A stretch of DNA of 64,000 nucleotides from an uncultured archaeon (lineage in GTDB: Archaea; Nanobdellota; Nanobdellia; Pacearchaeales; GW2011-AR1). The notes beneath the pieces were generated by a model that was not told where the DNA came from, made no database searches, and was given only the letters and a program-made list of their open reading frames with translations. Of this stretch, positions 43,714 to 48,554 are shown one piece after another (position 1 is the stretch's first letter; every line of letters begins with the position of its first letter). Location: positions 43,624 through 107,623 of the forward strand of contig CAIPOI010000006.1 in assembly GCA_903866625.1 (NCBI GenBank). The letters run 5' to 3'. The position numbers and the translations under genes were made by a program.

Positions 43714-45261
43714 TTAGTTATGATCTTCAATTCTTTTGATAATATCTGCAAAAGCAGGACGTGTTATGAATACTCCTGCAGTTATACCTATAAGCGTTGT
43801 TATCGCGAAACCCTTTAGTAAACCTGCTCCTGCTGCACCTATGCCCATAAATTGGAATAAGCCTGTTAGAGGAACTAAGGAAACAAAAGCTGTAGCAAAA
43901 GAAGTGAATATTATAAATAAAGCTTTTTTTATTCTTTCTTTTAGAGAGTCTACTTTAAATCTGGACTCATCAAGAATAACTATCTGAGAATCAACTCCTG
44001 TACCAATTGTTGCAATAATACCTGCAATAGAAGGCAAATCAAGGTTCCATTTGATTAGTGCAGCGAATCCTAAGATGATAACCAGTTCAGAGAAAGAAGT
44101 GAAAAGTAAGGCTAAGGATATTTTTATGTTCCTATATCGCAGGAATATGATGATAGAAACTGCTAACATAGCAAATAATCCTCCAATTAATATTGCTTCT
44201 GTAAAACTTTTTCCTAAAACTGGAGAAATTGTATCAAGCTTTGAAATTTCTAATTGATAAGGAAGACTTCCTGTAATAAGAATAGTTTGAAGCTTTTTCA
44301 TATTTGTTTCTGCATCAACAACTGCGGAAGCTCTATCTTTTCCAGTTCCAGAACCTTGAATAGATATCTGAGTCGTAATTTGTCCTTTCAAATCCTTTGA
44401 AATATATAATGAATCTGCAAGCTTTCCGTCAATGTATAAATCTAATTTCTGGGAAAGATAACCTGGATCTTCTGTGCTTATTGAAAGATTTCCAGTTACT
44501 GCTGCTTGACGTTTTGCAGCTTCTTCTGTTAAAGAAATAGGAAATCTAAATCTGCATACTTCTCCGCTACTTGTTGAAGAACATCCTTCTATTCCAGATT
44601 GCTGGCCAGATCTTTCAACATGAGCAATATCTTTTCCGCCAGTAAAGATAGTTTCATTACCAATTTTTCCCTCAAATTTTCCTTGCTGTAAAATTAAATC
44701 TTCTAAATCTTTTGGAGTAGAACCTGCAATTTCTATAATCATAAAATTATTCCCCTGCATATCTGAAGCTTTCTTTATATTCAAATCGGATAAGCCCACA
44801 AGATTAAACCTTTCTTGAGAAATTGAGATTAAATCAGTCAATTCTGAGTCGGTTAGACTATGATTCTTTGCAGTTATTAGGGCTCTTGCTCCACCCTGAA
44901 TGTCTAATCCGGTTTTTATTCTTATTCCAGACCTCTCTGAAACAATTATCTGATTTTTTATAGAAGAATTAAACAGACCTATAATTTCTTGTTTATTTGT
45001 TTGAATATCTAATTTATTCATTTGTTTATCCGATAGTAAAGACATAGAATTTTGAAAATCACTAACGTTCTTGATGGTCTGACCATTTACAGTAAGGATT
45101 ATTTCACCAACAGTTAATCCTTGATCTGACAGAGAGGTATTTTTTTCAACAAATTTTACATAAACCCCTGAAGTTGTAAACAAATCCTTAAAAGAAAATA
45201 TAAAGTATAAAGAGAATACTAAAAAGATTATTAACACCCAAGTTTTTACACTTAATTTCAT
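43714..45261 (-). CDS. secD: Protein translocase subunit SecD (with a PDZ-like insert)
   Basis: GLDIQGG, TGSLP, ISPVLG, IGTGVDSQIVI and LKGFA motifs. Confidence 0.93.
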   Translation of the reverse strand: MKLSVKTWVLIIFLVFSLYFIFSFKDLFTTSGVYVKFVEKNTSLSDQGLTVGEIILTVNGQTIKNVSDFQNSMSLLSDKQMNKLDIQTNKQEIIGLFNSSIKNQIIVSERSGIRIKTGLDIQGGARALITAKNHSLTDSELTDLISISQERFNLVGLSDLNIKKASDMQGNNFMIIEIAGSTPKDLEDLILQQGKFEGKIGNETIFTGGKDIAHVERSGQQSGIEGCSSTSSGEVCRFRFPISLTEEAAKRQAAVTGNLSISTEDPGYLSQKLDLYIDGKLADSLYISKDLKGQITTQISIQGSGTGKDRASAVVDAETNMKKLQTILITGSLPYQLEISKLDTISPVLGKSFTEAILIGGLFAMLAVSIIIFLRYRNIKISLALLFTSFSELVIILGFAALIKWNLDLPSIAGIIATIGTGVDSQIVILDESRFKVDSLKERIKKALFIIFTSFATAFVSLVPLTGLFQFMGIGAAGAGLLKGFAITTLIGITAGVFITRPAFADIIKRIEDHN

Positions 45262-46434: not shown

Positions 46435-46776
46435 TTAAAGATTGCTATCCTTTAATTTATAGTGGAATTTTCTATGGCAGTTAGCACATAAGACTTCACA
46501 TTTCTTAATTTCTTTTTGGACTCTCTGGATAGAGTAACCTGCATGGACTTTTGTATTGATTCCAAAAAGTTTATCTCTCTTGTTTTTATGATGAAAGTCG
46601 AGGGTTGCTGGATGATTCTCTCCACATTTAATACATCTAAGGGTTTTCTTATATTCTTTAAACCATTTTTTAATTTCTTTTTTTCTTCGAGATATATGTG
46701 CTTTTTCAGATTCTCTGTTAAGAGAATACCAATTTCTCCTATAGGCTCTTCTTTTATCTAAATCTTTATAAGGCAT
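46435..46776 (-). CDS. Small HNH-type endonuclease with zinc knuckles
   Basis: CIKCG..LDFHH...KCEVLCANCH..H; basic N-terminus. Confidence 0.8.
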   Translation of the reverse strand: MPYKDLDKRRAYRRNWYSLNRESEKAHISRRKKEIKKWFKEYKKTLRCIKCGENHPATLDFHHKNKRDKLFGINTKVHAGYSIQRVQKEIKKCEVLCANCHRKFHYKLKDSNL

Positions 46777-46831
46777 AAACTTATAGGGTTTCCAACTATT
46801 AAAATTATTGTAATCCCTTAAGAATAACTAA

Positions 46832-46908
46832 CGCGCCCGAAAGGATTTGAACCTTTGACCCTCTCCTTAGGATGGAGATGCTCTGATTCCGGGCTGAGCT
46901 ACGGGCGC
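46832..46908 (-). tRNA. tRNA-Arg(CCT)
   Basis: GCGCCCG/CGGGCGC acceptor, TCTCC-ATCCTAA-GGAGA anticodon arm, AAAGG-TTCAAAT-CCTTT T arm. Confidence 0.92.
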
Positions 46909-46946
46909 AACAAAATATGCGAGTCTTACTTAGTCTCATGATTCTC

Positions 46947-47139
46947 ATGCGAGAGATAGCTCAGAAAATAAAATTTTCTGATACTTCAATTCTCTACTTT
47001 CGAATTGAAGTGATTCGAACCTATCGAATCCTATCTATGCGAGAGATAGCTCAGAAAATAAAATTTTCTGATACTTCAATTCTCTACTTTCGAATTGAAG
47101 TGATTCGAACCTATCGAATCCTATCTATGCGAGAGATAG
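46947..47139. repeat. Two identical 90-bp tandem repeats plus a 13-bp partial copy overlapping the tRNA-Leu 3' end
   Basis: 46947-47036 equals 47037-47126; 47127-47139 (ATGCGAGAGATAG) begins a third copy and is the tRNA 3' end. Confidence 0.95.
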
Positions 47140-47210
47140 GATTCGAACCTATGAAGGCATAAGCCAAGAGATTTTGAGTCTCTCCCGTTTGACCGCTTCG
47201 GTACCCTCGC
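47128..47210 (-). tRNA. tRNA-Leu(CAA)
   Basis: GCGAGGG/TCTCGC-A acceptor, AGAGA-CTCAAAA-TCTCT anticodon arm, long variable arm, ATAGG-TTCGAAT-CCTAT T arm. Confidence 0.94.
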
Positions 47211-47233
47211 ATAAAAAAACTAATAATAGAGTG

Positions 47234-47251
47234 TATAAAAAGCTTTATAAA
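47234..47251. promoter_or_regulatory. Back-to-back BRE/TATA promoters for tRNA-Leu (-) and the leader-leuA transcript (+)
   Basis: TATAAAAAGCTTTATAAA: TTTATAAA at 47244-47251 lies ~22 nt before ATG 47273; TTTTTATA on the minus strand lies ~24 nt before the tRNA 5' end. Confidence 0.65.
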
Positions 47252-47272
47252 TTTAAAATTCTCAGAGATATT

Positions 47273-47332
47273 ATGAAACCTGGAGTAGAAGCTAATTGTT
47301 CAAGAATTCTATTAGCTCTGCTTATTTTATAG
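47273..47332 (+). CDS. Putative Leu-rich leader peptide (19 aa) of leuA
   Basis: MKPGVEANCSRILLALLIL*; five Leu in the last seven codons (CTA, TTA, CTG, CTT, TTA); double stop TAG TAA. Confidence 0.7.
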   Translation: MKPGVEANCSRILLALLIL

Positions 47333-47365
47333 TAAGGTTTCTCTAAATTTATTTCTTGGAGAAAC
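47275..47365 (+). promoter_or_regulatory. Putative translational attenuator (SD-sequestering hairpin and competing stem)
   Basis: GTTTCTCTAA(47337-46)/TTGGAGAAAC(47356-65) covers the GGAG site; GAAACCT(47275-81) can instead pair with AGGTTTC(47335-41). Confidence 0.65.
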
Positions 47366-47366
47366 A

Positions 47367-48554
47367 ATGACAAACCCTAATTATAATTCTGCTTCTGAAA
47401 GGAAAATTATCATTCTAGACACGACTCTTAGAGATGGAGATCAAAGTGCTCTTGGAACAATGTATCCTAGTGAAAAAATGAAAGTTGCAAAACACCTTGA
47501 GAAAATGGGAGTTGAACGAATTGAAGCAGGTTTTGCTGCAGCAAAAGGTAATTATGAATTTATGTCCGGAGTTGCTCAAACATTAAAAAATTCGTGGCTT
47601 TCTGGTCTTTCTAGATGCGTAAATAGAGATACAGAAAGAACTTACGAAGCTTATAAGAACTATCAAAAAAGAATGATCCATCTTTTTTTGCCTACTTCTG
47701 AAATTCAAGTAAGTGCTAAAATGAAAAAAACTGATGACGAACTTATAAAAATAACTAGAAGTTCTGTGACTTATGCAAGGAGTTTCTTTGATAAAGTTGA
47801 GTTTACTGCAGAAGATGCTGTTAGAAGCAATTGGGATTTTTTGAAAAGAGTTTATTTTGAAGCCATAAATTCTGGAGCTACCATAATTAATGTAGCCGAT
47901 ACTGTTGGCTATGCTGAAACAGAAGAGTTTGGAAGGCTTGTCAAAAATGTTGCGGGTTATGTAAAAATAATAAACCCCAATGTAGAAATAAGTATTCACT
48001 GTCATAATGATTTAGGATTGGCTGTTGCAAATACCATTGCAGGAATTAAAAACGGAGCACAGCAAGTAGAGGTAACTATCAATGGTCTTGGCGAAAGAGC
48101 AGGTAATTGCAGCCTTGAACAGATAGTTGCTTTTAGTAAGGTTCATCCAGAATCTTTCTCAACCAATGTTTTATCAGGGGAAATTTACAAAGCTTCCAAA
48201 ATGGTTAGTAGATTTACTGGAGTAAGAAATGACTCTGCTCCTGTTGTTGGAAAATCTGCTTTTGCCCATAAATCTGGAATACATCAACATGGAGTCATAA
48301 ATAATAAAGAGTCTTATGAAGTTTTAAGAGCAGAAGATTTCGGAAGAAAAAGTGAAATAGTTATAGGCCCTCATTCAGGCTATCATGGAGTTATTGCAAA
48401 AGCAAGAGAGCTCGGATTTGAAATTAGTCAAGAACAAGCAGCACTAATTTTAGATGTAGTTTCAGAAAAAGTTCAAAGAGAAGAGCAAAAAAGATTTGAT
48501 GATGAAGATATCAGAAAAATACTTATGGAAAAGGTTTTAGCTCTAGCAGTTTAG
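47367..48554 (+). CDS. leuA: 2-isopropylmalate synthase, short form without the C-terminal regulatory domain (DRE-TIM family)
   Basis: DTTLRDG.Q, IEAGF, EDA.R, DTVG, HCHNDLGLAVAN, INGLGERAGN and AFAH.SGIHQ.G motifs; 395 aa. Confidence 0.8.
   Translation: MTNPNYNSASERKIIILDTTLRDGDQSALGTMYPSEKMKVAKHLEKMGVERIEAGFAAAKGNYEFMSGVAQTLKNSWLSGLSRCVNRDTERTYEAYKNYQKRMIHLFLPTSEIQVSAKMKKTDDELIKITRSSVTYARSFFDKVEFTAEDAVRSNWDFLKRVYFEAINSGATIINVADTVGYAETEEFGRLVKNVAGYVKIINPNVEISIHCHNDLGLAVANTIAGIKNGAQQVEVTINGLGERAGNCSLEQIVAFSKVHPESFSTNVLSGEIYKASKMVSRFTGVRNDSAPVVGKSAFAHKSGIHQHGVINNKESYEVLRAEDFGRKSEIVIGPHSGYHGVIAKARELGFEISQEQAALILDVVSEKVQREEQKRFDDEDIRKILMEKVLALAV

Follow-up and report, generated by a model that had tools for sequence, protein, structure and literature searches.

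A conserved leucine-tailed upstream reading frame before a LeuA-type gene of a very small archaeon: a candidate translational attenuator

Leader-peptide attenuation is a textbook bacterial mechanism. The leu-operon leaders of proteobacteria combine a terminator hairpin, followed by a U-run, with an antiterminator. In the translational attenuation of cat and erm, which is also bacterial, stalling is caused by a drug together with the nascent peptide. The locus described in this study resembles both types. As in the enterobacterial and proteobacterial leu leaders, a leader peptide containing a Leu run stands before a gene of the LeuA type, here with five Leu in the last seven codons. As in cat and erm, masking of the ribosome-binding site by a single hairpin is predicted, and this hairpin could melt when a ribosome stalls in the leader ORF beside the 5′ arm.

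Short leaderless polycysteine ORFs of mycobacteria are reported to work through stalled ribosomes that block the duplex (Canestrari et al. 2020, bioRxiv 10.1101/834739). They share with our leader a short ORF that stands, in our case probably, right at the 5′ end of the transcript and that repeats codons for the amino acid to which the downstream genes are linked. In the actinobacterial LEU element, the Leu codons themselves and the Shine-Dalgarno box form the paired base of a conserved pseudoknot, and the authors doubted that the leader acts as the sensor (Seliverstov et al. 2005, PMC1262725). The element has a Leu-run upstream ORF before an isopropylmalate synthase gene, a Shine-Dalgarno box in a stem and no classical terminator (PMC1262725), and in this it is similar to our locus.

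The leader and the gene behind it

We analysed a window of 64,000 nucleotides, by which we mean the whole stretch of DNA at its full length; all positions refer to it. The initial annotation had taken the host for a DPANN-like archaeon, and this was borne out by a genome of 0.73 Mb, archaeal SecD/SecF and nearest named homologues from Candidatus Pacearchaeota (kingdom Nanobdellati). The features of the locus were as follows.

47127-47211, minus strand: divergent tRNA-Leu(CAA) gene at a distance of 61 nt from the ATG of the uORF; the AT-rich promoter region is common to both
47244-47251, plus strand: TATA box TTTATAAA, a palindrome, read from the sequence
47273-47332, plus strand: leader uORF, 19 codons and TAG (MKPGVEANCSRILLALLIL), read from the sequence
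47275-47281, plus strand: 5′ strand of P0, the alternative helix (start-codon G and codons 2-3), exact complement
47283-47323, plus strand: P1, stem within the uORF between early codons and the first Leu/Ala codons, from minimum-energy folds
47309-47329, plus strand: putative regulatory tail, the last seven sense codons of the uORF, read from the sequence
47335-47341, plus strand: 3′ strand of P0, exact reverse complement of 47275-47281
47337-47365, plus strand: P2, predicted post-stop hairpin with arms 47337-47346 and 47356-47365, from folding
47358-47361, plus strand: GGAG resembling a Shine-Dalgarno motif, its first base 9 nt before the main ATG, read from the sequence
47367-48554, plus strand: putatively controlled gene, 395 aa, catalytic core of the LeuA/homocitrate/citramalate-synthase family, from profile and structure-relative matches

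The uORF starts with the ATG at 47273 and ends with the TAG at 47330-47332, and an in-frame TAA follows directly. Its tail codons are CTA, TTA, GCT, CTG, CTT, ATT and TTA, which gives five Leu (four different codons), Ala and Ile. P2 starts 7 nt past the first base of the uORF stop, and its arms form 10 pairs, one of them G-U, around a loop of 9 nt. We found the uORF, its Leu codons, the hairpin arms, the GGAG and the complementarity exactly where they had been annotated initially. The leader was invariant among four DNA contig sets of the stretch, and a search for RNA runs that cover it gave none. A tRNA-Leu gene lies upstream on the opposite strand also in the homologous loci L002, L003 and L024.

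The distance from the start of the TATA motif to the uORF ATG is exactly 29 nt. In 14 of 19 loci of the same order, TTTAWA starts precisely at -29 relative to the ATG of the uORF. In the host's own genome (n = 547 gene ATGs), the TATA motif was found at -29 in 84 cases, at -27 in 42 and at any other position in at most 11. In the same genome, SD-like 4-mers were enriched at -16 to -9 before gene starts. The -29 offset of the TATA motif is a genome-wide signature of leaderless gene starts in this archaeon. The uORF probably starts where the transcript starts, or no more than a base or two away. It had been proposed to be leaderless; the TATA spacing fits this proposal, and the start of transcription itself is what we infer.

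The protein of 395 aa contains two Pfam domains only, PF00682 (HMGL-like, 243.6 bits) and PF22617 (HCS_D2, 75.7 bits). The C-terminal regulatory LeuA_dimer domain was absent from it in the Pfam search; full-length relatives carry PF08502. There were approximately 36 short homologues in the protein collection, and these entered the analysis as proteins. Every curated family scored below its own cut-off for this protein, and the best whole-protein score was 425.1 bits against a cut-off of 532 (NCBIfam PRK00915 / TIGR00973 tested). The best solved relative was the isopropylmalate synthase 3rmj (281 bits), with 186 bits for the best homocitrate synthase and 107 bits for the best citramalate synthase. 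The families of LeuB, LeuC and LeuD (Iso_dh, Aconitase and Aconitase_C) and those of IlvD and IlvE were not found in the host genome, which is 89.4% complete; controls were detected in 14 of 14 genomes. We observed an aconitase-family (LeuC-type) gene approximately 3 kb downstream of the leader-bearing gene, on the same strand, in 4 of 10 class-level genomes tested, and therefore the leader is tied to leucine synthesis. The gene had been named leuA. Its sequence points to a catalytic core of the LeuA type, and this part of the name stands; with no regulatory domain, scores below the cut-offs and no pathway partners found, identity with leuA is not proven.

Conservation of the Leu-tailed uORF

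We searched for ATG uORFs of 12-30 codons that end 15-80 nt upstream of a gene and have at least four Leu in the last eight residues. Under this strict rule, only 1 of 546 ORFs of at least 150 aa in the host's own genome passed, namely the LeuA-type gene. Homologous loci of the same order passed in 13 of 22 cases. Under a relaxed rule, matches were obtained for 18 of 23 order-level loci (two of them judged false), including the metagenome locus L115, which is 74% identical, and for 16 of 23 class-level loci from other families (15 of 22 without L122, which comes from an unpublished genome). By comparison, the relaxed rule was matched by 6 of the 546 long ORFs of the host's own genome and by 2 of 35 further ORFs from these loci. 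The Leu-tailed uORF before the LeuA-type gene is far beyond chance. Its conservation in homologues had been set beforehand as a test that could refute the attenuator, and the uORF was present in most of them, at the level of both order and class. A looser rule gave Leu-run uORFs in 14 of 77 usable bacterial LeuA loci.

The other five relaxed-rule matches in the own genome appeared by eye to be ends of upstream coding sequences or unrelated short frames, and none of them precedes an obvious leucine-related gene (also by eye).

The position of the uORF and the composition of its tail were kept in homologous loci, while its N-terminal half and its length vary. Leu was the last codon in 28 of 34 loci, the second-last in 27 and position -12 in 6, counts which are partly forced by the selection rule. 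We also compared the Leu codons of the tails with those of the adjacent LeuA coding sequences (CTG 17% vs 9%, CTA 12% vs 7%; chi-square 31.0, for which the p-value is overstated because the loci are related). The tails use Leu codons more variedly than the coding sequences that they precede.

No such uORF was found in L135, L136, L137 and L139, which are paralogues that follow a lysW-like gene and form a separate clade. Inspection of L117-L121 gave no Leu-run uORF. Three matches were set aside and left out of the hairpin, codon and duplex counts: L022, in which the match is the tail of a 216-aa ORF; L005, in which a 45-codon frame is probably the end of the upstream gene; and L145, with a weak Leu tail. 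The uORF survey left out L008-L019, distant paralogues of 24-30% identity, among them two short fragments (L015 and L016) and L017, which is 30% identical, as well as L116, of which the 5′ end is missing, and L138, at a contig edge with no start found. The scan of genome contigs for loci covered those among the matches listed and represents a sample, no census. The protein tree was built with FastTree only and its backbone is unresolved, therefore we draw no conclusion on the origin or transfer of the leader.

Hairpins, alternative pairing and modelled ribosomes

P2 alone had a folding energy of -10.9 kcal/mol (z -3.12), and 2 of 200 dinucleotide shuffles were as good. For the whole leader the energy was -24.0 kcal/mol (z -2.17; 7 of 200 shuffles as good), and this fold holds the stem at 47283-47323 together with P2. 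P1-like stems of different sequence appeared in folds of other loci. Post-stop hairpins had a mean z of -2.10 in the 34 loci, 17 of which were below -2, compared with a mean z of 0.05 and 1 of 34 below -2 for control windows inside coding sequence. The first paired base was located 0-7 nt from the uORF stop in 32 of 34 loci. The hairpin keeps its place with respect to the uORF stop, and its sequence is wholly different between clades.

The GGAG pairs in the folds with 47341-47344, which is a post-stop segment, and not with the Leu codons. In the clade of the window, P2 always carries GGAG, GGGG or GAGG in its 3′ arm. The hairpin that had been proposed to bury the GGAG is predicted in the window and kept in its clade. 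Many relatives have 40-130 nt between the hairpin and the main start, which it cannot mask there. This means that clades differ in mechanism or that masking is no general principle.

The 5′ arm of P2 had also been suggested to pair with the start of the uORF instead. The two segments are exact complements, and the pairing is kept in the clade with changes at one position. P0 and P2 are mutually exclusive, because the 3′ strand of P0 and the 5′ arm of P2 share five bases. The P0 duplex has an energy of -9.5 kcal/mol here and of -8.1 to -10.5 in four clade relatives, and in constrained folds it forms whenever the ribosome-binding region is held open. Over all 34 loci, cognate strands paired weakly better than non-cognate ones (mean -4.9 vs -3.7 kcal/mol, p = 0.02). 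We judged P0 by duplex energies and constrained folds; MAFFT put the 5′ strands of L003 and L033 1-2 columns off register.

Covariation in the stems, which the initial annotation had named as a check, was present at one pair of P2 and one position of P0. The alignment fold of P2 for five clade sequences has 8 pairs, 1 of which changed on both sides, with 5 compatible changes on one side, 1 broken cell and 2 gaps. In P0, the position beside the CC/GG core is U-A, A-U or C-G across the clade, which is compensatory.

There were 0 intrinsic-terminator-like sites in 47100-47500, and no run of five T in the loop and tail of P2. This agrees with the earlier observation that no U-tailed terminator is visible. 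An Rfam scan of 46700-47500 (all 4227 families, E up to 10) gave nothing within 47230-47370, and its sole good matches were two tRNAs. T-box and riboswitch readings were rejected because the leader has no Rfam match.

Further, we modelled the occupancy of the leader by a ribosome. In silico, the probability that GGAG is unpaired was 0.00 in the free leader. With a ribosome on the leader it was 0.00-0.01 until the A site reached the last Leu codon (0.14) or the stop (0.34). Modelled stalls at four of the five Leu codons left P2 intact. A leucine-starved ribosome might therefore halt before P2 opens, which would reverse the regulation.

Proposed mechanism, alternatives and known systems

We consider it somewhat better than an even chance that the leader is a ribosome-mediated translational attenuator that depends on leucine codons and acts on a leaderless transcript. 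Transcription would start at or beside the uORF ATG, approximately 26 nt downstream of the TATA box centre, and ribosomes would load straight onto the 5′ end and translate the 19-codon leader. In the resting RNA, P2 would pair the GGAG, and the LeuA-type gene would be poorly translated. When charged tRNA-Leu is scarce, a ribosome would linger on the last Leu codon or codons, cover the 5′ arm of P2 and free the ribosome-binding motif. Leu codons at the very end of the leader and a hairpin just past its stop would provide the geometry for this opening. The freed 5′ arm may then pair with the first codons of the leader (P0), so that the motif stays exposed and further leader translation is shut off. 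We infer that the leader is translated, that it senses the supply of leucine and that stalling switches expression on and not off. The attenuator reading of the initial annotation gains support from conservation, TATA spacing, P2 and P0. Classic feedback logic is without obvious purpose here, because the genome shows no leucine pathway for the product.

We give a low, still appreciable probability to positive translational coupling, in which a ribosome finishing the uORF would open P2 or reinitiate 34 nt downstream, and leucine shortage would lower expression. In the model, the motif is most open when the A site holds the stop codon (0.34) and stays closed at Leu codons 13-17, and feedback derepression is of no obvious use in a host genome without a leucine pathway. 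Coupling requires no Leu codons, however, least of all Leu in the last place in 28 of 34 loci, and switching off in starvation would be harmful at loci of the same type with a LeuC-type gene downstream. L026, L028 and L029 have a second ORF of 9-11 codons, with its ATG inside the 3′ arm of the hairpin and its stop overlapping or abutting the main ATG. This second mini-ORF resembles a reinitiation relay, but only these three loci, which are close relatives, have it, and it may be a chance feature that was inherited. It is also unlikely that the stop-adjacent hairpin, with its T-runs, is a signal for pausing, termination or cleavage, possibly factor-dependent, which a ribosome at the uORF end blocks. 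Such control of elongation or stability would suit the many class-level hairpins that lie at too great a distance from the main start for masking and yet abut the uORF stop. By eye, the hairpin of L007 is followed directly by five T, and several others have five or six T in the loop (e.g. L115, L024, L025, L031, L126). T-runs are, however, often expected in DNA of 32% G+C; the window has no terminator-like site and no run of five T in the loop, and the 3′ arm in its clade always bears the ribosome-binding motif.

The short ORF could alternatively encode a small hydrophobic peptide that has a function in itself, its position reflecting only shared ancestry of the locus. The hydrophobic tail and the L-A-L-L motif, which recurs at the peptide level, would agree with this. 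We find it very improbable: the hydrophobic part has 7-10 residues, which is too few for a membrane span, and outside this part the sequence varies, as does the length of the peptide (14-29 codons, shorter readings), even in a pair that is 74% identical. Moreover, the uORF is tied to one enzyme family across distant clades, in short and long forms, and the peptide would give the stop-adjacent hairpin no role. Extremely improbable, in our opinion, is that a regulatory protein, e.g. of the Lrp/AsnC type, uses the inverted repeat as its DNA operator and that the uORF is incidental. Amino-acid-responsive regulators of this type are common in archaea, and a repeat of 10 bp is plausible as a dimer site. 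It lies, however, 64-93 nt downstream of the probable start of transcription and not over the TATA box or the start, differs completely in sequence between clades while its place relative to the uORF stop is fixed, and as an operator would leave the Leu codons unexplained.

Returning to the leucine-dependent attenuator, we also considered what it might serve in a genome of this kind. It is quite doubtful, though conceivable, that low tRNA-Leu in the symbiont switches on a lone enzyme without the leucine-inhibition domain, that 2-isopropylmalate then enters the host pathway past its feedback-controlled first step and that the host overproduces leucine for the symbiont, which would be unable to make its own. 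If this were true, the first ribosome-mediated amino-acid sensor known in Archaea would be part of a host-manipulation circuit.

In summary, these results suggest bacterial-style, ribosome-based sensing of an amino acid that is conserved in very small archaea and apparently new for archaea. No archaeal leader-peptide attenuator was found in a search of full-text literature, within the limits of the collection and the wording searched. The leader family would be one of small-genome (DPANN) archaea, built from archaeal parts: a TATA motif at fixed distance, a leaderless start and a stop-abutting hairpin. If the reading is true, Bacteria are not alone in having evolved or kept a way to sense tRNA charging with the ribosome. 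The leaders would then offer a natural system for testing how archaea couple transcription to translation and initiate on leaderless transcripts, and the retention of a lone gene of the isopropylmalate-synthase type in symbiont genomes without the pathway would become testable.

The archaeal leader differs from each of the known systems. The polycysteine ORFs of mycobacteria are bacterial, sense cysteine and were tested by mutation, whereas our leader is archaeal, has its TATA motif at -29 and is known from sequence alone. It has its Leu run at the extreme 3′ end of the ORF, a hairpin that abuts the stop and a second helix to the ORF start. In contrast to the LEU element, the Shine-Dalgarno box here is predicted to pair with a segment past the uORF stop and not with the Leu codons. 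Compared with classical leu leaders, there is no terminator-like site and no Rfam match here, and Leu is at the end of the peptide instead of the middle. From cat and erm the leader would differ in its trigger, which we propose to be a shortage of charged tRNA.

Leader elements and conservation of the uORF

The initial annotation had proposed a candidate leucine-sensing attenuator in front of leuA, and all of its listed elements were found in the window:

47244-47251, TATA box TTTATAAA, read from the sequence
47273-47332, uORF of 19 codons; five of the final seven encode Leu, using four different codons
47275-47281 with 47335-47341, strands of the alternative helix (P0), an exact 7-nt complement
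47337-47346 and 47356-47365, arms of the post-stop hairpin (P2), 10 pairs
47358-47361, GGAG within the hairpin 3' arm, 5 nt ahead of the ATG at 47367
47367-48554, LeuA-type ORF of 395 aa with an HMGL-like barrel and an HCS_D2 subdomain

Folding energy was -10.9 kcal/mol for the hairpin (z = -3.12) and -24.0 kcal/mol for the entire leader (z = -2.17). No terminator-like site was found within 47100-47500, which bears out the earlier statement that a U-tailed terminator is lacking. The leader did not match any Rfam family.

We searched for Leu-rich uORFs in front of homologous genes, as had been suggested, and found them conserved. Among 401 genomes of the same order, 21 carried a homologue at E ≤ 1e-40, and 22 loci were examined. 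The strict rule required an ATG uORF of 12-30 codons whose stop falls 15-80 nt ahead of the main ATG and whose last eight residues include four or more Leu; it selected 13 of the 22 loci. Among the 546 long ORFs of the own genome, the present LeuA-type gene was the single one selected. Under the relaxed rule (10-45 codons, stop no more than 160 nt upstream) 18 of 23 loci passed, including the metagenome locus L115. Two of these matches, L022 and L005, were judged false, being tails of longer upstream ORFs (a putative one in L005). There were three near-misses: a 14-codon uORF with three Leu among its final five residues (L024), a uORF tail rich in Ile (L002) and a Leu-rich frame without ATG (L021). 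Neither a Leu-tailed uORF nor a near-miss was detected upstream of L030 and L027.

A class-level sample of 401 genomes taken from the phylum gave 24 others with a homologue and 23 loci with a usable start. The relaxed rule selected 16 of 23 loci (15 of 22 without L122, which comes from an unpublished genome). A seventeenth case, L134, has a 35-codon uORF with six Leu among the last eight residues. Four loci without a relaxed-rule uORF (L135, L136, L137, L139) lie each directly 3' of a lysW-like gene and form a separate clade on the tree. Therefore we regard them as lysine-pathway paralogues and as a useful negative control. In further controls the relaxed rule selected 6 of 546 ORFs of the own genome and 2 of 35 other ORFs of the same loci, one of the two being a Leu leader before a 216-aa ORF of L022. 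This Leu-run leader has a TATA-like motif and a post-stop hairpin, and the 216-aa ORF is itself located ahead of a 510-aa LeuA.

Conservation of the peptide was restricted to its tail; even the L115 peptide, from a locus with a 74% identical enzyme, keeps the tail and differs in its first half. Leu was the last sense codon in 28 of 34 loci, the penultimate in 27 and the one twelve codons back in 6; the selection rule itself accounts in part for the enrichment over the last eight positions, but not for the bias to the very end. Rarer Leu codons were commoner in the tails than in the adjoining LeuA coding sequences (CTG 17.2% vs 9.1%, CTA 12.1% vs 6.7%, CTC 8.8% vs 5.0% of Leu codons). The own genome encodes at least four tRNA-Leu species.

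Several single loci deserve description. The 539-aa family member L143 is preceded by a pair of ORFs, one terminating 149 nt before the gene in a Leu-rich tail and then Lys, and one terminating 13 nt before it with three Ile and one Val among its last five residues. This locus may sense more than one branched-chain amino acid. In L036, on a contig labelled Candidatus Nanohalarchaeota, a 504-aa LeuA is preceded by an open frame that is truncated where the contig ends; this frame closes with a Leu-rich tail, and a hairpin follows. This leader type may thus extend to another DPANN lineage. Among the bacterial loci L035-L114, a loose rule detected a Leu-run upstream ORF in 14 of 77 usable ones (e.g. 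Campylobacter and Arcobacter records), as is expected for classical leaders.

Promoter position and tRNA neighbourhood

In the window's genome the motif TTTAWA preceded ATGs of long ORFs at -29 in 84 of 547 cases, at -27 in 42 and at any other offset in no more than 11. Such a sharp peak indicates that the spacing between promoter and start codon is constant for most promoters, a signature of leaderless mRNA, and a large share of the genes look leaderless. The uORF carries this signature and the main gene does not. TTTAWA started exactly 29 nt 5' of the uORF ATG in 14 of 19 rule-picked order-level loci, and at -29 to -34 in 10 of 18 class-level loci. The SD-like GGAG of the main gene begins at -9, inside the genome-wide SD-enriched zone (-16 to -9), where such motifs probably serve internal cistrons; its presence without a TATA signature is expected of a second cistron. 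These positions support a single transcript on which the uORF is leaderless and the gene behind it SD-led. The TATA box at the genome-wide offset of -29 thus favours the leaderless uORF that had been proposed, with its start site deduced from the promoter.

A divergent tRNA-Leu(CAA) gene is located 61 nt from the uORF ATG. In four loci a tRNA-Leu gene lies upstream of the leader-LeuA unit on the opposite strand (CAA in the window; TAA in L002, L003 and L024), which could reflect shared ancestry or a functional link. The window tRNA region spans 46831-47211; here, as in L024, tRNA-Leu has tRNA-Arg(CCT) as its neighbour. L002 has a second tRNA-Leu gene, with anticodon CAG, that overlaps the enzyme gene at the latter's 3' end. 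Between tRNA-Arg(CCT) and tRNA-Leu in the window there is a perfect tandem repeat (46947-47139; period 90, 2.1 copies, 100% matches), each unit of which starts with the 3'-terminal 13 bases of the minus-strand tRNA-Leu(CAA) gene. It resembles repeated attachment-site scars left by an element that had inserted into the tRNA gene.

Hairpin, alternative helix and ribosome position

The second conserved feature was a hairpin directly 3' of the uORF stop, wholly different in sequence between clades. The 42 nt from the stop codon had a mean folding z of -2.10 in 34 loci (17 of 34 below -2), compared with 0.05 (1 of 34) for control 42-nt windows inside LeuA coding sequences. In 32 of the 34, pairing set in 0-7 nt from the stop codon's first base. 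In the window's clade (the window, L115, L003, L033, L024) an alignment fold of P2 kept 8 pairs, with one changed on both sides and five changed on one side from U-A to U-G, and the 3' arm always contained GGAG, GGGG or GAGG just 5' of the ATG. In L026, L028 and L029 the 3' arm holds the ATG of a second ORF of 9-11 codons, and the stop of this ORF overlaps the main ATG or adjoins it. The arrangement is suggestive of a termination-reinitiation relay for that sub-clade.

P0, the annotated alternative pairing of the first uORF codons with the hairpin 5' arm, was kept in all five clade members (-8.1 to -10.5 kcal/mol). Compensatory changes were seen at one position, adjoining the conserved core, which is U-A, A-U or C-G depending on the member. 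Constrained folds of all five gave two competing states: 5' end paired with the ribosome-binding region open, or 5' end free with the region masked. The masked state was favoured by 5.1 kcal/mol in the window and by 1.5 in L115, and the P0-formed state was the minimum-energy fold in L003, L033 and L024. P0 was not general outside this clade (average -4.9 kcal/mol for cognate and -3.7 for non-cognate pairs, p = 0.02, a value that overstates significance because the loci are related).

Ribosome occupancy of the window uORF was modelled codon by codon: for each position, the nucleotides from 12 upstream to 15 downstream of the first P-site base were barred from pairing. The unpaired probability of the GGAG region was 0.00-0.01 for positions up to codon 18; it reached 0.14 when the A site stood on the last Leu codon and 0.34 when it stood on the stop codon. 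Therefore the geometry suits such a mechanism only when the ribosome is at the very end of the uORF, where the family concentrates Leu codons and places the hairpin.

On these comparative and thermodynamic grounds, a ribosome short of charged tRNA-Leu would dwell on the terminal Leu codons and hold the P2 5' arm, exposing the ribosome-binding motif; P0 could then capture the released arm, keeping the leader open and silencing the uORF. The main rival is the opposite logic, in which expression needs completed translation of the uORF and starvation lowers it. In clades in which a long distance separates the hairpin from the main start, elongation or RNA stability may be what is controlled instead.

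The target enzyme and known leader systems

The best-scoring models for the 395-aa protein were bacterial-type 2-isopropylmalate synthases (425 bits against a cut-off of 532), and it was under every curated cut-off. Its closest solved relative was isopropylmalate synthase 3rmj (281 bits; homocitrate synthase 186, citramalate synthase 107). The protein ends at the point at which full-length LeuA would go on into its regulatory domain. The leuA assignment is putative: it is the best match to models and structure, for a protein below curated cut-offs and without the regulatory domain. Public data contained approximately 36 short homologues (47-74% identity), two of them named Candidatus Pacearchaeota, a clade within the kingdom Nanobdellati. 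SecD and SecF of the window are of archaeal type; in the SecD homologue (43714-45261, minus strand) residues 31-70, close to the N-terminus, form a PDZ-like segment (PF00595, E 2e-5).

In the own genome (725,599 bases, 8 contigs, 89.4% complete) the Iso_dh, Aconitase, Aconitase_C, ILVD_EDD and class-IV aminotransferase families were not found; controls were positive in 13-14 of 14 reference genomes. Aconitase and isopropylmalate-dehydrogenase families accompanied the LeuA-type gene in 1 of 21 order-level genomes (G339). A LeuC-type gene lay approximately 3 kb downstream of the leader-bearing gene, on the same strand, in 4 of 10 class-level genomes, which ties the leader to real leu operons in some lineages; the other six, 92-100% complete, had none. 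In other lineages the leader is retained with the first enzyme alone, often as a version that lacks the regulatory domain. Short forms adjoin long forms in several places on the tree, whose backbone is weak.

The cat and erm genes are controlled by single-hairpin translational attenuators, and these are among the closest to the present element in apparent working. Also among the closest are the leaderless polycysteine short ORFs of mycobacteria. The actinobacterial LEU element shares a Leu-run uORF and a buried Shine-Dalgarno box with the present element, which lacks its defining stem between Leu codons and box. The terminator of classical leu leaders is absent as well. The initial annotation held that few such systems are characterised in Archaea; our full-text literature search found no leader-peptide attenuator described in Archaea or DPANN, and passages of a Haloferax ribosome-profiling study mention upstream ORFs and assign them no such role. 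In summary, the principle is bacterial and well known; the novelty lies in the domain of life, in how promoter and start are arranged, in the terminal position of the sensing codons and in the target being an orphan.
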